This document shows positions 9,560 through 19,363 of a DNA stretch of 64,000 nt, one piece after another. The translations under genes and the position numbers were made by a program. Origin of the DNA: Chloroflexota bacterium. Lineage in GTDB: Bacteria > Chloroflexota > UBA6077 > SHYK01. Below the pieces are notes generated by a model, which was not told where the DNA came from, made no database searches, and saw only the letters and a list, made by a program, of their open reading frames with translations. The stretch is taken from NCBI GenBank assembly GCA_009377635.1, contig WHTR01000001.1:41257-105256 (forward strand), in the 5' to 3' direction. Each line of letters begins with the position of its first letter. Positions within the stretch are counted from its first letter, which is position 1.

Positions 9560-10457
9560 TGGTTCCCTCCCCCCGATGCGACGGGACCGGGCCATTACCT
9601 TTGGTCAAGCGGTGAGCGATGGGATAGGATTCCCGGCCGAGCCACAACGACCCGTTACGAAAAGCCCTAAATCGGAAGGAATCAGAGAGCCGCGGAGCGC
9701 CTGCGCGTCACCCGACGGGCGATCATCGGCCGAAACTGCACCGAGAAGATCCGATTTGGTTGCAACTTTTGGAATCGTGCGAACAGTGGGGGTGCATGGA
9801 TGTTTTCAAGGCCACCGATCGCCGAGCCGCAGCGTGCTTCTTGTAGAAGCCCCTACCGCGAGTTCGTGAGCCACAGCCTCGGTGGCAAGCGTGCAGCAGC
9901 GCTGCTCCTCACGCTTGCCGCGACAGGCTGCGGCCCCTCGATCGGTGTGACGCAGCCTGCGAGCGGGAGTACACGCATCAAGTCGATTAGTGTCGTCGTG
10001 CTCAACATCATCAGCGGCTTCAGCGTCGCGGCTAGAAACACAAATAAGGGCGGAGCAGACGGTGCCAACGAAGTCCATTCCAATGAGCTGTTTGAACCGC
10101 CCCGGATTTTGGAGAGACTCCGGTTTTCGTGCGTTCGCGCGGGGACACCTCAGCGGGGGTATTGTACGGCAATCACGCCGCCGCTGGCGAGGATGCCAGT
10201 GGTGGGAACCGCGGGCTGGATCGATGCTGGCAGGGGTAGGAGCGTGGTCAGCTCCATTCATGAGATGGGGAACAGATCGGTGAGCGCTACCGGCTCGTCG
10301 CAATGGGGGCAGAGGCCTCCGGGACCAAGCCGCCGGCAGGGCCGCTGGCAATCTGGGCACCGCTGCTCTCCCAGGTAGCGCGTCTCGCAGGCGGTGCACT
10401 GGCAGACCGTCGCTACTCGCGGCGATCTGCTGGGTGGTGCCGGTACTGGAGGGGGGT

Positions 10458-11776
10458 GACGCTCCCGCCACGCGGCCTGGCGGCAGGAGTCCGAGCAGAA
10501 CCTCCGTCGTCTGCGCGACAACGGTCAGGCCTACGGCGCCGACCGGCGGCATGGCCCGCCACGAGTAGGCCCGGCGCTGCTCCAGGGTCTGGCGGTGTGC
10601 GGTCGGTGCGGGGGACGCATGACGATCCGCTACTACGTCAGCCACAGCCAGGTCCTGCCGGAGTACTGCTGTCAGCGTGAGGGGATCGAGAACGCGCACG
10701 CTCCCTGCCTGCGCGTGCTCGGCGCCGCTCTCGATCGTGCCATCGGCAACCTGTTGGTGGAGACGGTGAGTCCGCTGGCACTGGAGGTTGCGCTGGCGGT
10801 CCAGGATGAGCTCGAGGCCCGCGCGCAGGAGGTGGACCGCATACGTCGCCAGCAAGTGGAGCGCGCGCGTTACGAGGCGGAGTTGGCCCAGCGGCGGTAC
10901 CTCCGCGTTGATCCGGACAACCGTCTGGTCGCCGATTCCCTGGAGGCCGAGTGGAACACCAAATTGCGCGCACTCGCCGCGGCCCAGGAAGAGTACGAAC
11001 GTCAGCGCGCCGGCGAAGGCGGCGTGCTCAGCCCGGACCAGCGTCGGCAGGTCATGACTCTGGTGACGGACTTTCCGCGCCTCTGGCACGATCCGGCCAC
11101 CCCGCAACGGGAGCGGAAGCGCATGGTCCGCCTGCTCCTGGAAGATGTGACGCTGCTGAAGGCCGATGCGGTGGTCGCTCAGATCCGCTTCCGTGGCGGC
11201 GCCACGCATACGATCCGGCTCCCCTTGCCCGTTCCAGCCCCAGAGCTGCGAAAGACCGCTCCAGCGATGGTGGCCGAAATCGATCGCCTGATCGACGACC
11301 ACATCGATGCCGAGATCGCCGAGATCCTGAACGCCCGAGGTCTGCGTCCCGGTGTGGCGGACCGGTTCACCAACAGCAGCATCTGGCACATCCGCCAGAG
11401 GTACCGTCTCGAGAACCGCTTCAGCCGTCTGCGTCGACAGGGGATGCTCACGCTCCAGGAGATAAGCGTTGCGCTTGGTCAGCATCCCTCCACGGTGAAG
11501 GAGCGGGCAACCAGAGGTCAGCTGGTCTCGTACGTCTACAACGACAAGGGCCAGCGTCTGTACGCACTATCCGGTGAGCCCGCCCTCATTGCGTGCCTTC
11601 GCTGCAGCAAGCCGATGCCCGAGCGCGGAGAGCGCGGTCAGCTTCAGACGTACTGCGGTGTGACGTGCCGCACCGCGGCCTACGCGCATCGCAGAGCAGC
11701 GGCCGGCTGGATCCGCGTCCGGCGGCGTTCACCACTACGCTATCGCACTCCATCTAATCCAAGAGGAGCAGTTTGA
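10458..11776 (+). pseudogene. large serine recombinase, C-terminal ~440 aa only (zinc-ribbon CGRCGGRM plus coiled-coil); catalytic N-terminal domain absent
   Basis: Frame is open from the TGA at ~10455 with no start codon. LQGLAVCGRCGGRMTIRYY zinc-ribbon motif. No resolvase-domain sequence in any frame upstream. Confidence 0.6.
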
Positions 11777-11779
11777 TGC

Positions 11780-11917
11780 GCAAGCCTTGTGTTCGGGCGT
11801 CCGTGGGCGCGTGGGGCTCACCAGGAACCCGTAGTGCTGGGCCAGCCGACGGTACGGCTCGCCCAGCACGGGGTCATAGAGGGAGGCCTCGAGGACCGCG
11901 GCCTTGAGGCTGTCGAA
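11780..11917 (-). pseudogene. istA: IS21 istA fragment (distal part, continues from 15442 across the RIT insertion; truncated at ~11780)
   Basis: Minus-strand translation FDSLKAAVLEASLYDPVLGEPYRRLAQHYGFLVSPTRPRTPEHKA matches the IstA DNLK...HYG...PARPRKPRDK region. Confidence 0.55.
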
Positions 11918-12015
11918 GTTCTGTGCCCGACTGCGTTATGTGCCCGCTAGCCCTCCGCCGGGTGTGCCGGCGAAGGGCCAGGGGCCGATGTTCATCGTCG
12001 GAGGGCACATAACGC

Positions 12016-13024
12016 TCAGAGTGAAGCGAGCCAGTTGAGGAGGGTTTCGTCTGACCGCCAGACGGGCTTGGTGGGGGGTCCCACCAAAGTAGCCGGAGGC
12101 TCAACCGCTCGGAGCGCTGCTTCCTTGGCCTTCGTGTTGATCTCGGCGTAGCGGTTGGTCGTGGTGAGATCGGCGTGGCCCAGCCAGCCTCGGATCACGT
12201 TGATCTCCACGCCGGCCTCGAGAAGGTGGACGGCGGCGGTGTGCCGGAAGATGTGCGGGCTGATCCTGCGATTGGTCCGGTGGTCATCCAGGCTCGCAGC
12301 GTGCCGGCGCTCGATCTTGTAGATGCCGAATCGGGTGAGGGGATGCCCGTGTGCCGAGAATACGGCAGCGTCCGACGTACAGGGCGGGTCGAGGGACTGA
12401 AGCAGTGAACTGAGCAGTGTTGCCGTCTGGTGCCACAGCGGGCTTCTCCGCCACTTGTCACCCTTGCCGTGGAGACGAACGGTGGGATGCTCTCCGAGAT
12501 CCAGGTGCTCGACGCGCAGGTCGGCCACCTCTTGCACCCGTGCTCCCGTGACGAACGAGGAACAGCAGCAGAGCACGGTCCCGTAGAGCGAGCCGGCCAT
12601 CGCGCGGCAAGCGATGCAGGAGTCCCTCGACCTCGTCTCGTTCGAGGAACCGCGTCTCGGCCGGGGCCAGCCTTTTCATCGGAATGGCAGCCACCTGCTC
12701 ACAGACGACGAGCATCTCTGGTGATCGTCCGGCGATGTATTCGAAGAGGTTGTGCAGGGCAGCGAGCCGCCCGTTGCGCGTGCGGACATGGTTGCCTCGG
12801 TCTTGTTCGAGGTGGCGCAGGAACTTGATGACTCGGTCGAAGGTGAGATCCCCGAGGGAAAGCCGGGTGATCCTGCACCTCTTGTCGGCCGCGACGAACA
12901 GGAGGAGGAGCCGGACCGTGTCCCGGTAGCTGCGCACCGAGGCCGGACGGAGGCCCTTCGCCGCGATCAGGTGGTCGACGAAGAACGAGTGCAAGAGGGG
13001 CCCGAGCGGCTGAGCTTCGCTCAT
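12016..13024 (-). pseudogene. ritC: ritC tyrosine recombinase, +1 frameshift near 12560
   Basis: N-terminal SAM-like part is in the 12458..13198 frame (start 13024 overlaps the ritB stop as ATGA). The catalytic part with HIFRHTAAVHLLEAGV...RYAEI is in the 12016..12600 frame. 7 nt lie where 6 are expected between LLLFL and TGARVQEV. Confidence 0.65.
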
Positions 13025-13998
13025 CGCGCCGCCTCCACCCACACCTGTGCGGCGAAGGCTTCGAACCGTCGGCTCGCCTCGTCCAACAACGCCCGGCTGA
13101 TGGTCAGGTACACCGCCGTCGAGGCGGGGCTGACGTGGCCCATGAAGGTGGAGAGCTGATGGAGCCGGGTCGATGGGTCCAGACCCTCGCGGTACCACCG
13201 AAGCAGGCAGCCGACCGCGAACGAGTGACGGAGATCGTGCAGCCGCGTCGGTGAAATCCCTTCGGGGACGCCGAGCCCGAGCGCGACGACCAGTTGATGG
13301 AACGTCTGGCTGGCAGTGCCGGGATGGATACAGCTGCGCTCATCGAAGCTGAACAGTGGTGTCTGGGCATCGGGCGCCGCGCCACGGTTCCGGCACCGCT
13401 CGATCTGCTCGCCGAGCAGCTCGCCGACGCGCGGCCCGTGTGGGACGAGGCGGCTCTTTCCGAACTTGCCGCCACGCACAACGAGGAGGTGCCGATCGAC
13501 ATCGATGTCACCCAGGCGCAGCCCGCAGGCCTCACCGGCGCGCAACCCGAGCCCGTGGCACAGGGCGAAGACGGCGCGATAGGTCGGGCCCCGCCCACGT
13601 GCCCGAGGATTGTCCGGCAGAGCAGCGGCAGCCTGGAGCAGCCGGCGAACCTGGGCTGGGTCGAAGAGGAACGGGATCCGTCCGGCCGTGGTTCGACGCC
13701 GGCGGGCGTGCAGCGGTGAGGTCTCCAACCGTTGCTGGGTGAGCGCCCAGTCGAGCAGGCAACCGATGACACCCAGGAGATGCAGGAGATGATTGAAGCT
13801 GCGCGGACGGGACCTGGGCCGAGAGGCCAGGAAGTCCTCGATCAGGGCCGGTGTCAGCTGGGCGAGCCCGCTCACGCCGTGGGCTTCGGCGAAGCGCACC
13901 AGCAGCCGCAACTCTCGTTCCTCACTCTGGTACTTGCGGCCGATGGCCCTCTTGTGTTCGAGGAAGTCCTGGACGGCGAATCCAAGGCTCTGGGTCAT
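13021..13998 (-). CDS. ritB: ritB tyrosine recombinase (325 aa)
   Basis: Phage-integrase family motifs (LRHSFA...GH....T..Y). 4-nt overlaps with both neighbours. Confidence 0.8.
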   Translation of the reverse strand: MTQSLGFAVQDFLEHKRAIGRKYQSEERELRLLVRFAEAHGVSGLAQLTPALIEDFLASRPRSRPRSFNHLLHLLGVIGCLLDWALTQQRLETSPLHARRRRTTAGRIPFLFDPAQVRRLLQAAAALPDNPRARGRGPTYRAVFALCHGLGLRAGEACGLRLGDIDVDRHLLVVRGGKFGKSRLVPHGPRVGELLGEQIERCRNRGAAPDAQTPLFSFDERSCIHPGTASQTFHQLVVALGLGVPEGISPTRLHDLRHSFAVGCLLRWYREGLDPSTRLHQLSTFMGHVSPASTAVYLTISRALLDEASRRFEAFAAQVWVEAAR

Positions 13999-15263
13999 CC
14001 CAGCACCTCCTCGCCGTCGCCCAGGGCGACTTCGCGGAGGGACTCGACGGCGACTTTGGCATAGATTTCTGTCGAGGCCGCCGAACGGTGTCCGACGAAG
14101 TCCCCAATGGTCTTGAGGGAGAAGTCCGCGTCCACCAGGCGCTGAACGGCGCTATGACGCAGCGTGTGGGAGCCCGGACGGGGCACGTCGATGCCAGCCT
14201 TCAACAGGTAGCGCCTGGCACAACCGGAGATCGCAGCAGTCCCGATCGGTCGCAGCGGAGCCATCGCCCGGAAGAACACGTGCCGCTCGGTGGTCTGTGG
14301 TCGGCCGTGCTGCAGATAGTCGACGAGTGCCACTCCGACTGACGTGGACAGCGGGAAGGCCGTCGAGTGTCCGGCCTTGCGCTCCGGTATCGCCAGCCGC
14401 TCGTGCCTCCAGTCAATATCTTCGAGGGTCAAAACCGCCGCCTCGCGGGCACGAAGGCCGTACGTCACGAGCAAGAGCAAGATCGCGTAGTCCCGCTTCC
14501 CCCATGGGGTGCGGCGATCAACGGTGCCCAGTACGTGGCCCACCGCGGCCCATGAGATGGACCGAGGGATGGTGGAGAGCCGATAGACCTGCGGCCACTC
14601 CACCGCCTTGGCCAGGTCGCTGGTGAAGGGACCCGCGCGACGTGCGTAACGGAGAAACACCCGCAGCACGCCACAGGCCTCCCGCACGGTCGTCTTGGCC
14701 AGCCCGGACCCGGACCGTTCGGCTACGAAGGCGCTGAGGACCGTCGGGGAGAGGTCGTCTATCTCTCCGACACCCAATCGGATGAGATAGGCCTCAAAAC
14801 GGCGCAGGTGATGCCGGTAGGACCTGACCGAGGCCGGCCGGAGGCCACGCTCCGAGACCAGGTACTGGAAGAAGCCGGGCAGCACTTGGGCGAACGGCTC
14901 GTCATGGTGCCGGCGGCCAGTGGCCTCGTAGTCGGGCACCACTACGCCCAGCATATGCTCGATGGAGCCTCGGATCTCTTTGGCCACCTCTTGCCGGGCC
15001 ACTCCGCGATGGCGAGCACCACGATGCTCCACCCAATTGGCCACGAAGGCGTCGATCTGGGTGGGCAGGTCGCCCACGGCCTGGACACCTCGAAGGCGAG
15101 CGAACTCCCCGAAGGCAACCAGCAAGGGGACCCGGCGCAGTACGGTCCGAACGCTGTAACTTTGCTCGGCCAGCCAGACGACGTAGCGCTCGATCTCTGG
15201 CCCGATCCACGAGGCTTGGACCCGATCAACGGTCTGAGGCTTGACGAAGTACGTCTCCAACAT
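13995..15263 (-). CDS. ritA: ritA tyrosine recombinase (~422 aa)
   Basis: Start MLETYF at 15263 is preceded by GGAGAGGAGG. C-terminal HTLRHSAVQRL...GH.S...T.IY catalytic region. Confidence 0.8.
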   Translation of the reverse strand: MLETYFVKPQTVDRVQASWIGPEIERYVVWLAEQSYSVRTVLRRVPLLVAFGEFARLRGVQAVGDLPTQIDAFVANWVEHRGARHRGVARQEVAKEIRGSIEHMLGVVVPDYEATGRRHHDEPFAQVLPGFFQYLVSERGLRPASVRSYRHHLRRFEAYLIRLGVGEIDDLSPTVLSAFVAERSGSGLAKTTVREACGVLRVFLRYARRAGPFTSDLAKAVEWPQVYRLSTIPRSISWAAVGHVLGTVDRRTPWGKRDYAILLLLVTYGLRAREAAVLTLEDIDWRHERLAIPERKAGHSTAFPLSTSVGVALVDYLQHGRPQTTERHVFFRAMAPLRPIGTAAISGCARRYLLKAGIDVPRPGSHTLRHSAVQRLVDADFSLKTIGDFVGHRSAASTEIYAKVAVESLREVALGDGEEVLG

Positions 15264-15441
15264 GCGGTAACCTCCTCTCCACAAACAGTGTTGAGGAAGC
15301 ATCTTCTCTTGGGCTGTGGCGTTATGTGCCCGGTGGAGCCTACGTCCAGCCACTAATCCTCGTGATCACGGCCACCGTCTGCTCCTGGACACATAACGCA
15401 GTCGGGCACAGAACCCCGAATATGTTCCGCGGAACATATTC

Positions 15442-16056
15442 GAAGACGACGACGCGGGGCGAGCCCTGGTAGAACTCCAGAGTGTTCGCGTGGGCGTCCA
15501 GCCAGGAACTGAGGTCCTAACCGGCGGTGGCTTCTCCGTATAGGTAGCCACTGGCGCCCAGCACCGAGACGAACACCTGCGCCTGCCCGATCTCCCCCGT
15601 GTCCGGGTCGGTGATCGGCATCGTATCGCCGCAGAAGTCCACAAACATGCGCTCGCCCGCGGCGTACTCGAAGCGCATGACCACGTCCTGGCGGCCCAGC
15701 CAGCGGTGGTAGTGGGCACAGAACTGGGTATAGCCCCAGCCGTCGGGGTGGACGGCCTTGTATTCGAGATGCAGCAGCTGGAGCGTGACGTGCTTGCCGC
15801 GTTTCCGCTCGTGACGGGCCGCGAGCCAATCAGGCTCGGGCCGACCCGGCCGCGTGTCCCTGTCACTGCGCTTGAACAGCCGCGCCTCGAGGCCGGCCCC
15901 GTCTAGGTCGTCCGGCAGCGGCCAGCGGACACCGGCCCGCAGCGCCCGGTCGAGGTAGCCCTGGACCGTAGACGCACTGATGGCAACGCTCTGGGCGATC
16001 TGGCGGTAGGTGAGGCCCTGCGCGGCCGGGCGCAGCACCTCCGTGATCTGACGCAT
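15442..16056 (-). pseudogene. istA: IS21 istA N-terminal part (HTH plus start of DDE); in-frame TAG at 15517..15519, then interrupted by the RIT element
   Basis: MRQITEVLR...TYRQIAQSVAISASTVQGYL HTH, then LEYKAVHPDGWGYTQFCAHY...MFVDFCGDT. After the TAG the frame still reads DLSSWLDAHANTLEFYQGSPRVVVF. Confidence 0.7.
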
Positions 16057-16195
16057 GGATAATCCCTTCTGCGGCACGGAGCCCTCCCTCGCTGAAAGTG
16101 GCAACTTCCAACGAGGAGGCTACGTGCCGCCTGGACCTCCATGGCGTCACCGACTGGACCGACGGTCCCGGGTGCTGTCGCCGCAGCTACCCACG

Positions 16196-16334
16196 CTGTT
16201 CGGCTTCATCCGAAACGGGTGTTCGGCATGCCCAAAATGACTGTTCGGCTTGGGCCGAAATCGGTGTTCGGCTTCGTCCGAAATAGCCGTTCGGCTTCCT
16301 CCGAAATCACTGTTCGTTTTCGCCCGTGATGCAC
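16196..16334. repeat. six tandem ~23-bp direct repeats (core TGTTCGGCTTCnTCCGAAAT), putative IS21-family terminal transposase-binding array
   Basis: Units start at 16196, 16219, 16242, 16264, 16288 and 16311. Each unit contains a TTCGG/CCGAA mini-palindrome. The array lies ~90 bp upstream of the istA start. Confidence 0.6.
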
Positions 16335-16710
16335 AATGTGCGCCAGATCTGCCGGGTCGAACGCCGGCGGCTCGTGGTGCAGGGCGGGCAAGTACGGAAG
16401 AGGGAGGTGGAGGTCAGCTACGCCATTACCAGCGCGCCGCCGGAGCGGGCGGACGCCACCCAGTTGCTGCATGGGTTGCGCGGCCATTGGGGGATCGAGA
16501 ACAAAGTGCACTGGGTGCGGGATGTCACCATGGATGAAGATCGCTGCTAGGTGCGCTCGGGGGCCGCGCCCCAAGCCTTCGCCGCCTGTCGGAACCTGGC
16601 GCTGACGCTCCTGCGCCGCGCCGGCCATGACAACATCGCTGCCGTACAACGAACTTATGCGGGCCGGCCTCGCGCGGCCGTCCGCCTCCTGCTCTCAGGC
16701 GGGATCACCT
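16326..16710 (+). pseudogene. ISAs1-family (DDE_Tnp_1) transposase, C-terminal remnant with in-frame TAG at 16547..16549
   Basis: …YAITSAPPERADATQLLHGLRGHWGIENKVHWVRDVTMDEDRC then stop, then VRSGAAPQAFAACRNLALTLLRRAGHDNIAA…LSGGIT. N-terminus removed at the IS21 end. Confidence 0.6.
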
Positions 16711-16811
16711 GATGAAAAGGCCCTGCCCCATGCCGCCGAGGAGACTGTGGGTCTTCGCGCCGGATCGTGGTGGCGTGCGCATCCCGGAGTCGGTGCGTCG
16801 GCGAGGGGTAG

Positions 16812-17246: not shown

Positions 17247-17546
17247 TCAAGGAAGACGCTGACGCCATTTGTCGGGGTCTCGGGATGCGTGGAAAACACC
17301 GTAGACGATCACCGTGCCTTCGACATACTCGTAGAAGACCAAATAGGGAAAGCGACGGACCAGCCCCCGACGATAGTTCTCGTGGATGGGAGTATGCAAT
17401 TTGGGTGTGCGGCGGATCGCTTCAATGCAGGCATCGATGCAGCTCAGGAACTCCTCGCCCAGGCCGATCCGGCGATCCTCGTACCAGGCGTACGCCTCCA
17501 CGAGGTCTTGCTCGACCTCCGGCGCAACGATGAGATCAGCGGCCAT
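17247..17546 (-). CDS. type II toxin, ParE/RelE family
   Basis: 99 aa; RRFPYLVFYEYVEGTVIVYGVFHASRD C-terminal signature. Overlaps the upstream antitoxin by 11 nt. Confidence 0.75.
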   Translation of the reverse strand: MAADLIVAPEVEQDLVEAYAWYEDRRIGLGEEFLSCIDACIEAIRRTPKLHTPIHENYRRGLVRRFPYLVFYEYVEGTVIVYGVFHASRDPDKWRQRLP

Positions 17547-17760
17547 AACGACTGCGGACCCTGCGTTTGACCTCCTCCCACACGAGTCCAGCGGCGGGGT
17601 TGTCTATCAGGATGACCTTCCGCCGGGCCAGCGCTTCTTTTTGCCAGTCATGAACCGGTACCACGTCGGGAGTGGCCGCAAGGTCATCCCACAGGTCTTC
17701 GACAAGCTGGAGCTTTTCCGACGGGCTCAGATCAAAGATTGACGTGGCGACCGGGTTCAC
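17536..17760 (-). CDS. antitoxin, putative addiction-module component (TIGR02574-like)
   Basis: GTG start at 17760 is preceded by GAAGGAGG. LSPSEKLQLVEDLWDDL motif; 74 aa. Confidence 0.65.
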   Translation of the reverse strand: MNPVATSIFDLSPSEKLQLVEDLWDDLAATPDVVPVHDWQKEALARRKVILIDNPAAGLVWEEVKRRVRSRYGR

Positions 17761-18205
17761 CTGCGATCCTCCTTCAATACTGTTCAGGGACGACGAATGC
17801 CTCTGCCCTTCGACGCCCACGAATCATCCGCTGCCTGGCCCGCAAGACAAGTACCAGTATATGGCATCGCGCCCAAGGCGATACCGCGCTCCCCGCAACC
17901 GACTCTCAACCTTGGCACCAAGAGCTTGGTGCGAACTTCCCGGCCTGCCGGCCTGGTTCTCATGCTGCTATAACCAGTCAGGCGCTGCCCGCCTGCCACC
18001 TCCGAAGGGCCTGCGCCCAAGTGGCTGGAGCGGTAGGCTACGGCTGCCTGGTGAAACGGAAGTGGGCCCCGGTGGAGACCGATCCACCGCGGATGAGCCG
18101 CGCGCGGTGGACCTGCTTATCGGGTACGGCACAGCGGCGGGAGGATGGCAGGTTGAATCGTACTGGGATTGGTGGAGACTTCATCGCTTGGAGGAAGATG
18201 GAGTC

Positions 18206-18544
18206 ATGAGAGAACACAGCAGCCACCCGTCCCAGCGGCGCTACCCGCCCGAACTCAAAGACCGGGCTGTCCGGCTCGTATTCGAGACCGCGGCCGAGCG
18301 CGGTGACCACCACGGCGCGGTGACGATCGTCGCCCATCAGCTGGGGATCGGCCCGGAGTCGCTCCGCACCTGGGTTCGGCAGAGCGAGATCGACGCCGGT
18401 CGCCGGGCCGGCCTCACGACCGAGGAGCGCGAGCGAATGAAGGTCCTGGAGCGGGAGAACCGGGAGCTCCGCCGGGCCAACGAGATCCTCAAGAGCGCGG
18501 CGGCTTTCTTCGGGGCGGAGCTCGACCGCCGCTCGCCGCGATGA
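18206..18544 (+). CDS. IS3-family transposase OrfA (HTH)
   Basis: ATG at 18206 is preceded by GGAGGA. …LERENRELRRANEILKSAAAFF leucine-zipper region typical of IS3 OrfA. Confidence 0.8.
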   Translation: MREHSSHPSQRRYPPELKDRAVRLVFETAAERGDHHGAVTIVAHQLGIGPESLRTWVRQSEIDAGRRAGLTTEERERMKVLERENRELRRANEILKSAAAFFGAELDRRSPR

Positions 18545-19229
18545 TCTGCTACATCGACGAGCATCGTGGGTCGTACCGGGTCGAGCCGATCTGCCGGATG
18601 CTGGCGATCGCCCCGTCGACGTACTACGCGGGGAATGTCCGTCCACCGTCGGTGCGATCTGTCCGGGACGAGGAGCTCAGCCGCGCCATCGTCGACGTGC
18701 ACCGCGAGCACTTCGGGGTGTACGGCGTGCGCAAGGTCTGGCGGGCGCTCCGCCGTCGAGGGGCGGAGGTCGGCCGCGACCGGGTCCGCCGGATCATGCG
18801 CAAGCTCGGCCTCGCCGGGGTCGTCCGCGGCAAGCAGAAGCGGACGACGATCCCGGCACCGGAGAGCGAGCGGCCGACTGACCTCGTCAACCGGACGTTC
18901 GCCGCGACCGCCCCGAACCGGCTGTGGGTCGCCGATGTCATGTACGTCACGACCTGGTCGGGGTTCGCCTTACCCGCGTTCGTCATCGACGCGTTCAGTC
19001 GGCGGATCGTCGGCTGGCGGGTGAGTGCCAGCCTGCGCGCCGAGCTGGCCCTCGACGCGCTCGAGATGGCGATCTGGCAGCGCCAGAGCGACGACCTCAC
19101 GGGCCTCGTCCACCACTCTGAGACAGTACCTTGCTATCCGCTACACCGAACGGCTCGCTGCTGCCCGCGCGATTGCCTCGGTCGGCTCCCGAGGGGATTC
19201 GTACGACAACGCCCTGGCCGAGACTGTCG
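18541..19229 (+). pseudogene. IS3-family transposase OrfB, internally deleted (~8 nt, frameshift at ~19115) and 3'-truncated
   Basis: DDE core up to LVHHSE, then the frame switches to RQYLAIRYTERL...GDSYDNALAETV. The expected HSDRGSQY is reduced to HHSE/RQY. Confidence 0.75.
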
Positions 19230-19363
19230 GCGCTCAGCTAAATTCCCCACCCGCGTGCGGCATGGTTCAGAAAGCTATTGACAGTTGAGAGGGAGGCGGC
19301 AGGACACGGCTCGCACCGGGGGTATGCTGAACGTGGTTCCCACCCAGCATACCGGAGCTCGCC

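Follow-up and report, generated by a model that had tools for sequence, protein, structure and literature searches.

We analysed a 64,000-nucleotide stretch of a Chloroflexota metagenome-assembled genome (MAG; GCA_009377635.1, contig WHTR01000001.1, positions 41,257 to 105,256; hereafter the window) and found that the transposase gene istA of an IS21-family insertion sequence (IS) is interrupted by an RIT element, a mobile element with three consecutive tyrosine recombinase genes, at the codon that aligns with the second catalytic aspartate of the transposase. A palindrome lies between the 5' part of istA and the RIT element, and three related 6-bp units lie around the junctions. Comparison with related loci indicates that this palindrome is a conserved, functional-looking part of the recombination site of this RIT clade. 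The window lies on a contig of 113.6 kb. The identification of the region as an RIT element of 3.5 kb, carried by a Chloroflexi MAG, is almost certain on sequence grounds, and the layout of 6-bp units and palindrome, taken together with a target rule centred on the second catalytic Asp, is very probably correct. The mechanism that we propose for RIT movement, taken as a whole, stands at somewhat better than an even chance.

The RIT element occupies the following positions in the window:

11919..12015: ritC-side RIT end, with the outer motif TTCTGTGCCC at 11919-11928, an inner direct motif TTATGTGCCC at 11936-11945 and an inverted third motif at 12003-12015
12016..13024, minus strand: ritC, a tyrosine recombinase gene with the R/HxxR/H/Y motifs all present; one extra base within 12550-12556 inactivates it
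13021..13998, minus strand: ritB, a tyrosine recombinase gene (325 amino acids) that has an ATGA overlap with each neighbour
13995..15263, minus strand: ritA, a tyrosine recombinase gene (422 amino acids) with about 130 additional amino acids at the N-terminus, ahead of the SAM-like and catalytic domains
15319..15413: ritA-side RIT end, with an inverted third motif at 15319-15331, an inner motif at 15387-15399 (1 mismatch) and the outer motif GGGCACAGAA at 15404-15413

All three genes match the Pfam family Phage_integrase on the minus strand (E 1e-24 for 13995..15263, 1e-17 for 13021..13998 and 7e-22 for 12016..13024), and the ATGA overlaps are found at 13995-13998 (ritA/ritB) and 13021-13024 (ritB/ritC). 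The gene order is long RitA, RitB and RitC, with lengths of 422, 325 and 335 amino acids once the ritC frameshift is repaired, and homologous trios have the same lengths. The catalytic motifs can be read in the translations as LRARE, HTLRH and GH...EIY in RitA, LRAGE, HDLRH and GH...AVY in RitB, and GARVQE, HIFRH and GH...NRY in RitC, which extends about 35 amino acids beyond the catalytic Tyr. The NCBIfam search gave no Rit-specific family; its best matches were XerC/XerD models under their cutoffs. The terminal inverted repeat (IR) is perfect over 25 bp (arms 11918..11942 and 15390..15414) and extends to 33 nucleotides at 91% complementarity; the element measures 3497 bp from IR to IR. The motif GCGTTATGTGCCC is found at 11933, 12003 (minus strand), 15319 and 15387 (minus strand, 1 mismatch); allowing up to 2 mismatches, it has 8 matches in the window where 1.5 are expected, and none of 100 shuffles reached 8. 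When the tip copy GTTCTGTGCCC is included, an 11-bp motif is present three times at each end: a pair of direct copies is at the tip with a spacing of 17 bp, and an inverted copy lies about 57-70 bp further inward. A first-pass annotation of this DNA had proposed the RIT identity, the three integrase genes with ATGA overlaps, the 25-bp repeat and an inner motif copy at each end, and each of these was recovered here, the repeat at the same coordinates.

RitB matches 201 plasmid records, among them records from Burkholderia, Rhizobium, Sphingobium and Cupriavidus. The window RitB is 48% identical to that of the trio in Burkholderia sp. YI23, and the IRs of the two elements are nearly identical (TTCTGTGCCCGACTGCGTTATGTGCC in the window and TTCTGTGCCCGCTGGCGTTATGTGGC in YI23), so that the ends align closely with RIT termini of Proteobacteria. 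The same trio order, strand arrangement and ATGA overlaps are known from the RIT elements of Cupriavidus metallidurans CH34, pHG1, Burkholderia, rhizobia and sphingomonads (Van Houdt 2009/2012; Ricker 2013), which are also about 3.5 kb long with terminal IRs of about 25-34 bp; the window element differs from these by its host. The ritC gene of the window has one base too many within 12550..12556, where homologues read FLYNTGAR and the window reads FLVR, one additional nucleotide and TGAR, which bears out the +1 frameshift reported earlier. Over 12136..15549, a Logan assembly of run SRR10173838 agrees with the window at 100% identity, the frameshift included, and may not be independent of the MAG data. 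Because ritC is frameshifted, the window RIT is now a fossil, a decayed member of the known family.

The interrupted gene and what is left of its insertion sequence lie on both sides of the element:

11780..11912, minus strand: 3' fragment of IS21 istA, the right flank of the target; reads (D)SLKAAVLEASLYDPVLGEPYRRLAQHYGFLVSPTRPRTPEHKA and is cut off near 11780
15446..16056, minus strand: 5' part of IS21 istA, with the helix-turn-helix region and the first catalytic Asp; ATG at 16054-16056, in-frame TAG at 15517-15519; ends in ...EFYQGSPRVVV(F)
16057..16334, minus strand: left end of the IS21 remnant, with five TGTTCGGCTTCNTCCGAAA repeats about 23 bp apart (16198-16310) and its tip at 16334; abuts a DDE_Tnp_1 remnant

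Across the element, istA reads ...GSPRVVVF/DSLKAAV... (the slash marks the insertion point), with ...EFYQGSPRVVVF before the RIT and DSLKAAVLEASLYDPV... after it. The rejoined protein matches the NCBIfam IS21 transposase model NF033546 in one unbroken stretch (181.5 bits, cutoff 160) and aligns without gaps to uninterrupted homologues (PR.VVPDNLK.GV), in agreement with the clean insertion that had been reported; the TAG nonsense codon at 15517..15519 had been noted as well. In the IstA protein of IS5376, the DDE triad is D124/D187/E233 (PMC10122671). In our alignment, the Asp at the insertion point of the window corresponds to D187, D124 is also placed and the E233 region lies beyond the truncation point of the window gene. 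As judged from this alignment, the RIT breaks istA where the second catalytic Asp is encoded and so divides the catalytic triad. The IS21 target is itself a remnant, not a complete element: after the istA stop near 11780 neither istB nor an IS21 right end follows, and only the left end is found. We considered whether the palindrome belongs to IS21, and this is rejected; uninterrupted IstA homologues lack it, as does a DNA empty site in a relative (locus L045), which reads GTGGTGCCCGACAACCTG.

The junctions of the window contain four short features, for which we use the following names:

11913..11918, minus strand: T6R, the right 6-bp unit; CTTCGA on the istA/element strand (TCGAAG on the plus strand), spanning the Phe codon and the next two bases, which begin the catalytic Asp codon
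15414..15419: T6', the inverted third 6-bp unit; TCGGGG on the element strand (CCCCGA on the plus strand), differing from the flanking CTTCGA
15420..15439: X/X', the 20-bp palindrome core, ATATGTTCCG/CGGAACATAT; two inverted, degenerate copies of the RIT end motif
15440..15445, minus strand: T6L, the left 6-bp unit; CTTCGA on the istA strand

All 26 bp of 15417..15442 form a perfect palindrome, which occurs once in the window and is expected there 0 times by chance; the first-pass annotation was right to call it perfect and placed it 2 bp short, at 24 bp (15418..15441). The TCGAA that had been seen at both junctions is present there and is part of a longer direct repeat, the 6-bp TCGAAG at 11913..11918 and 15440..15445.

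To see how far this arrangement extends, we compared palindrome occurrences among the matches listed for GTDB representative genomes and metagenome stretches, from which all of the following counts of layouts, junctions and units are taken. The exact 20-bp core ATATGTTCCSSGGAACATAT is found in 28 GTDB representative genome stretches from several phyla, against an estimated chance number of about 2, and at least 120 metagenome stretches have it too; with GTDB included, at least 148 other stretches contain it. An RIT end motif lies beside the palindrome on exactly one side in 141 of 169 occurrences, on both sides in 0 and on neither side in 26. The 118 distinct junctions share one layout, namely flank, T6, X/X', T6', IR, ritABC, IR, T6 and flank, and the distance from IR to IR in the relatives is 3.44-3.58 kb. 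Relative to the target gene the palindrome is invariably 5', and its neighbour in the RIT is ritA in 53 distinct junctions and, in another 32, the ritC end. The palindrome had been described as unusual, whereas it is the norm in this RIT clade; it had also been suggested to make the element asymmetric, and while it does travel with the RIT, it has no fixed place on the ritA side.

Since the palindrome always stands on the side from which the target gene is transcribed, and its 10-11-bp stem could fold in RNA, we considered that it might have no part in RIT recombination, being IS21 target sequence, a separate tiny insertion or a hairpin that blocks transcriptional read-through. This explanation is very improbable and is largely refuted. 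The palindrome is missing from uninterrupted IstA genes, it accompanies RIT elements in the transposase genes of IS21, IS630 and others, it has arms that match the IR motif and no U-tract, and among the listed palindrome occurrences it was never seen alone within an otherwise intact gene.

A second set of relatives was chosen by RitB similarity alone, not by the palindrome; more than 4000 RitB clusters have E ≤ 1e-20 among 8000 candidates tested. Many of these RitB relatives lie on contigs of about 3.4-3.6 kb, which matches what is expected for a collapsed multicopy element. In P0011 (RitB 74% identical), another IS21 istA is interrupted at the same codon (...PAILVP/DNLRSGV...) and the palindrome is GAATATGTTCCCGGGAACATATTC. 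In P0106 (RitB 70% identical), the target is an IS630-family gene (...GAPIYVIL/DNLSAHK...) and the palindrome is identical to that of the window. In P0097, P0021 and P0108, IS630-like genes are interrupted at ...LVW/DNLNTH.... On the complete plasmid byi_1p of the cultured Burkholderia sp. YI23, whose intact copy is at 1,702.6-1,706.2 kb, the trio splits an IS21 istA at ...YVVP/DNLR... and the palindrome is TTTTGTTCCC/GGCAACAAAA (L166), and a Rhizobium leguminosarum Vaf-108 plasmid (L167) has the variant palindrome TTACGTTCCC/GGGCACGTAA beside a 5' part of IstA. The layout of the window is found in P0011, P0106, P0097, P0108 and YI23, while one junction each is visible in P0021 and Vaf-108; in every lineage picked by RitB, the palindrome lies between the 5' part of the target and the RIT, on the ritA side or on the ritC side. 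At 2480-2690 of the Vaf-108 locus, the repeat-rich end of another, intact IS21 seems to stand in place of the ritA-side RIT end, which would mean that an IS21 has inserted into an RIT that lies within an IS21.

These loci also bear on whether the junction structure could have been created by misassembly of a repeated element in a metagenome bin. The window is MAG sequence, and short-read contigs that break off at RIT ends make up many of the related loci. However, the same architecture is present on the complete plasmid of the cultured YI23 strain, on megabase-scale MAG contigs (L025, 2.6 Mb; L026, 2.2 Mb) and in the separate Logan assembly, and we regard an artefact as next to impossible.

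The best IstA homologues carry a trace of the same junctions: at least 22 of the 120 best homologue clusters read through the second-Asp codon into a peptide encoded by palindrome plus IR, [DE]YV..[HN]I..LLWPTGLCGR. Many database 'transposases' of 210-250 amino acids (P0131-P0240) are likewise 5' fragments of IstA that run into RIT ends, and their tails, [DE]YV(A/P)(R/G)(H/N)I(I/F) followed by LLWPTGLCGR, are translated palindrome and IR, a recurrent annotation artefact.

To define the repeated unit, we compared the bases next to the IR across loci. The apparent first base of the IR co-varies with the flank in L018, L025, L026, L027 and L036, and because of this the repeated unit is 6 bp. The reverse complement of T6' equals T6L in 52 of 116 junctions and differs from it at 1-4 positions in the other 64. 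In 31 loci in which both junctions are simple, all three units could be compared. All three are equal in 11 loci; T6' equals T6R and not T6L in 7; T6L equals T6' and not T6R in 3; T6L equals T6R with a differing T6' in 4, the window among them (CTTCGA and CCCCGA); and all three differ in 6. The units are thus unequal in 20 of 31 loci, in the classes that our model predicts, though some contigs may be chimeric. These classes are those that would be expected from heteroduplex overlaps together with an untouched second core site. A classical target duplication does not fit three units that so often disagree; disagreement of this kind is known from coupling sequences. Of the earlier proposal of a TCGAA target duplication, the repeat remains and the duplication does not, as the 6-bp unit appears to behave like an overlap or coupling sequence. 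The target duplication and the palindrome of an asymmetric element had been offered as alternatives; they are not exclusive, and both hold in modified form.

An asymmetric transposon, in which palindrome and IR...IR are inserted in a fixed orientation with a true 5-6-bp duplication and the ritABC body later flips by recombinase-mediated inversion, would account for flanking units that are identical, as they are in the window and others (the 11 loci with all units equal and the 4 with T6L equal to T6R). It would also be compatible with the presence of both orientations in near-identical IS21 contexts, as inverted sites 3.5 kb apart are good inversion substrates for tyrosine recombinases. We consider it unlikely, though it is the strongest of the rival explanations. 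T6L differs from T6R in 16 of 31 loci, which staggered-cut duplication, with its identical flanks, does not predict, and the inverted, target-like T6' is left unexplained. Inversion in place is not seen in the pair that shows the two IS21 orientations, L002 and L003, which are in different IS21 copies (98.6% identical, with unrelated DNA outside) and so point to separate insertions, not to a flip. To our knowledge, and as is established in their enzymology, tyrosine recombinases make no target duplications. The RIT copies of L002 and L003 are 99.9% identical compared to the 98.6% of their host IS21 copies, which, together with the many distinct insertion sites, lends indirect support to RIT copies moving as units.

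The palindrome could alternatively mark a hairpin or fold-back step, in which the RIT would move as a linear molecule with hairpin ends, made in a reaction like that of telomere resolvases, and X/X' with the inverted T6' would be the filled-in or resolved hairpin of each insertion. Protelomerases, which are relatives of tyrosine recombinases, make hairpins, and T6-X/X'-T6' is a perfect 32-bp palindrome in 45% of junctions. Hairpin intermediates were proposed by Nielsen et al. 2017 for exonuclease-resistant RIT DNA that gave no circle junction reads (PMC5737581). A hairpin copy would be exact, however, and T6' differs from T6L in 64 of 116 junctions; the central two bases of the palindrome need no symmetry, with CCGGGG in L019, L024 and L032; and X is constant over unrelated targets and varies with RIT lineage. 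This constancy and this variation show that X comes with the element, not from the target. We therefore regard the hairpin explanation as improbable, clearly more so than the asymmetric transposon.

We next asked what the palindrome is made of. In L044, the RIT in the closest interrupted IS21 relative that was compared as DNA, the palindrome TTATGTGGCG/CGCCACATAA consists of two inverted copies of that element's own end motif, TTATGTGGCC. The variant palindromes of L044, L166 and L167 all fit the IR motif TT-N-Y-GT-K-S-CC, and the window arm ATATGTTCC is a degenerate copy of it. The centre of the palindrome is variable and not always symmetric (CCGCGG, CCCGGG or CCGGGG), as expected for a spacer between two arms. 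As the palindrome arms are copies of the IR motif, X', T6' and the IR tip together make inverted arms of about 9-11 bp around 6 bp, which looks like the geometry of an Xer/dif-type core site. In the window this candidate core site is GGAACATAT-TCGGGG-TTCTGTGCC, with inverted arms around 6 bp, and in L044 it is GCCACATAA-TCCGGC-TTCTGTGGC, with arms that match at 8 of 9 positions.

To identify what the targets have in common, we examined the flanks of the insertions and their translations. The T6 consensus is NNNNGA, with GA in 115 of 116 junctions among the matches listed. Upstream of the insertion, GG at -26/-25, CC at -20/-19 and T at -10 are conserved, and YAAC follows downstream. Translated, the target is G-h-P-x5 / D-N/H, the strand that precedes the second catalytic Asp of DDE transposases, and nearly all targets of the clade are this strand. 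Rebuilt targets score above NCBIfam cutoffs as IS21 family (four) and IS630 family; further rebuilt targets are rve-type transposases that have sub-threshold IS481 similarity and the sequences ...CGIPDVLYx/DHGSDF and ...YV/DNGSPY. CCCCGA is the commonest overlap among IS21 Val-Pro-Asp sites in the matches listed, and we interpret T6' of the window as an overlap left from an earlier insertion site in this typical IS21 V-P-D codon context; the donor site itself (CCCCGA-YAAY) was not found in the window.

A divergent RIT lineage in a Gammaproteobacteria MAG (L025, on the 2.6-Mb contig) and an Aminicenantes MAG (L033) has the IR tips GACATGTGCCC and TAATGTGTCC and the same palindrome. Here the insertions are at the ATG of an istA-like gene (MQKIKDVLRL and MRKIKEVLRL, the family being assigned from the N-terminal peptide alone), with the units CATTGC and CATGGA. 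The target site thus differs, while the IS family looks to be the same, and these start-codon insertions suggest that IS targeting may be general among RITs.

In the mechanism that we propose, X and X' would be copies of a putative recombinase-binding motif at the IR tips, and X', T6' and the IR tip would form an Xer-like core site with arms of 9-11 bp and a 6-bp overlap. The ends of the excised element would be joined, most simply in a circle, as IR-T6-X/X'-T6'-IR, a palindrome of about 90 bp in which two mirror-image core sites lie back to back; for the window, the predicted join is ...GGGCACAGAA-CTTCGA-ATATGTTCCGCGGAACATAT-TCGGGG-TTCTGTGCCC.... One of the two core sites would recombine with a target of the form flank-T6-flank inside the 6-bp overlap, in which GA is fixed and four bases are free, so that heterology would be tolerated. 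The orientation of the asymmetric NNNNGA would decide which side of the target gets X, and the second core site, hence the whole palindrome, would be left intact 5' of the target whichever way ritABC points. As such a hop would leave T6' untouched, T6' could retain the overlap of an earlier site; for the window element this would mean a second site that still had CCCCGA when the element entered CTTCGA (Val-Phe-Asp). Exchange between partly heterologous overlaps would give heteroduplex junctions that segregate as donor or target sequence on either side. Landing in a multicopy IS would be harmless to the host, and the RIT could be carried along when intact relatives mobilise such IS copies in trans.

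A broader reading would make this RIT clade homing-type hyperparasites of insertion sequences. On this reading, the elements would recognise the DNA for the DDE second-Asp strand of three or more transposase families and would integrate through an Xer-like crossover, the 6-bp overlap having four free bases. Their double core site, with its two-fold symmetry, would be what appears in the genome as the palindrome; T6' would store the previous overlap; and the RITs would spread by riding the IS copies that they disable. For all of this to hold jointly, we see the balance as even.

Some loci depart from the common layout. In L021 (Cryobacterium lactosi Sr59), L041, L109 and L150, two transposase 5' parts stand head to head with T6-X/X'-T6' between them and no RIT; this is the leftover that would be expected if the intact core site of an integrated RIT recombined with a second target. 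In L004, L030, L065, L069, L143, L154 and L159, a palindrome is present on both sides of a single RIT and both outer flanks are transposase 5' parts, which fits inversion between oppositely oriented copies or an assembly chimera. At L020:6570-6660, an IS21 istA is broken by the palindrome and a 27-bp IR-IR remnant (TTCTGTGCCC, CTCGA, GGGCACAGAA) without rit genes, which may be a deletion derivative or a miniature element. At L170:5465-5750, two RITs are in tandem with 19 bp of IS630-like target sequence between them (CAACCTGAACACC and CCCCTG) and no palindrome; the contig ends in the second copy.

Several points weigh against the proposed mechanism. The predicted circle junction was not found: 0 of 169 palindromes are flanked by two IRs, and viral contigs gave no match. 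The exonuclease-protected RIT DNA of Nielsen et al. 2017 was likewise without circular junction reads (PMC5737581), and binding, cleavage and transposition data exist for no RIT (PMC10214605). The loci with two palindromes (L004, L030), those with head-to-head 5' parts (L021, L041, L109, L150), the 27-bp IR-IR remnant (L020) and the tandem without a palindrome (L170) need extra events, e.g. recombination of an intact core site with a second target or recombination between copies. Many loci are metagenome contigs and may include chimeric joins at repeats. In part, the target rule could be a matter of survivorship, as insertions in IS genes are harmless, or could reflect a requirement for a matching overlap instead of active recognition of the motif. 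Lastly, the window copy itself is probably immobile, ritC being frameshifted.

Earlier RITs were found inside an IS66 tnpA, a Tn6049-like transposase gene and radC, with ATGA overlaps and with ends described as a 28-9-bp IR 'and overlapping palindromic sequence' and as showing 'variation at the ends' (PMC2864759, PMC3414803). A 2023 overview states that the target specificity and movement of RITs were 'not tested' (PMC10214605). In the other RIT papers cited here we found no target rule, no mechanism and no description of the layout of T6, palindrome and T6', of its independence of orientation or of second-Asp targeting; Ricker et al. 2013 (Plasmid 70:226) may already describe part of this.

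The inferred behaviour of the RIT resembles that of Tn916 and CTnDOT, which also use a tyrosine recombinase, make no true target duplication, carry overlap bases of the previous site and can have differing junctions. In CTnDOT a conserved dinucleotide lies beside a heterologous overlap, which the fixed GA and four free bases of the RIT resemble. In contrast to the RIT, Tn916 and CTnDOT are large and conjugative, with one integrase plus Xis and arm-type sites, and they are not known to have a junction palindrome or a third, inverted overlap copy. Tn554 and SE (strand-biased circularizing integrative elements) carry six bp of donor flank to the new site (PMC10214605). Like the RIT, Tn554, SE and GInt require several recombinase-family proteins and insert site-specifically; unlike it, they encode TnpA/B/C or IntA/Tfp/IntB/Srap, have other targets and have neither RIT-type IRs nor a palindrome module. 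Rit proteins are classed as Xer-like 'simple' tyrosine recombinases (PMC8138268), and the inferred RIT core site, with inverted arms of about 10 bp around a 6-bp centre, is similar to the dif site used by XerC/XerD and by IMEX elements. Unlike IMEX, the RIT has its own three recombinases, and its target is a protein-coding motif in mobile elements, not the chromosomal dif. In its choice of DNA that encodes an invariant active-site motif, the RIT is comparable to inteins, group I introns and nested IS insertions, and such a target is conserved over diverged hosts and hard to mutate away. In contrast to inteins and group I introns, however, there is no endonuclease and no splicing, and the transposase is destroyed; the likeness is one of strategy, not of mechanism.

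RIT elements are widespread, as the number of RitB clusters indicates. From the window locus and its relatives, the borders of the element are exactly defined, and a candidate core site with its 6-bp overlap, the predicted junction of an intermediate and a portable target can be specified, the last being some 35 bp that surround the second Asp codon in any IS21 or IS630 transposase gene. For RIT movement and target choice, this yields specific, testable predictions. If the target rule is true, RITs would be mobile elements specialised in disabling other mobile elements at the catalytic centre, which bears on the control of IS load, and many database IS21 copies would be truncated at one codon because an RIT inserted there. 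For annotation, 'short transposases' that end in [DE]YV..[HN]I and LLWPTGLCGR can be recognised as read-through into an RIT end.

Around the interrupted gene, the window contains remnants of further elements. The istA end near 11780 adjoins the stop of an open reading frame (ORF) at 10595..11776 (plus strand), which encodes 393 amino acids with CxxC pairs and a coiled-coil-like stretch and ends 4 bp from the truncated istA. The first-pass annotation had istA truncated at a serine recombinase remnant; the truncation near 11780 stands, and the label is plausible and weakly supported, since Pfam, NCBIfam and PDB searches did not confirm a serine recombinase and gave only a sub-threshold Zn_ribbon_recom match (E 0.03). 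On the opposite strand, 9806..11485 is a long, spurious-looking ORF. On the other side of the element, 16326..16712 (plus strand) is a C-terminal DDE_Tnp_1 (IS4/ISAs1-like) transposase fragment with an in-frame TAG at 16548-16550. The IS21 tip at 16334 abuts or interrupts it, and the nesting is therefore at least three deep: DDE_Tnp_1 remnant, IS21 and RIT. An IS3-family copy at 18200..19281 (plus strand) has an HTH_Tnp_1 orfA followed by an orfB with HTH_21 and rve; orfB loses its frame just past the second-Asp motif HHS(D/E), and the sequence there is unlike the RIT end or the palindrome. Between the IS remnants, at 17247..17820 (minus strand), a ParE toxin gene (17247-17546) overlaps an 'addiction module' antitoxin gene (17536-17820).

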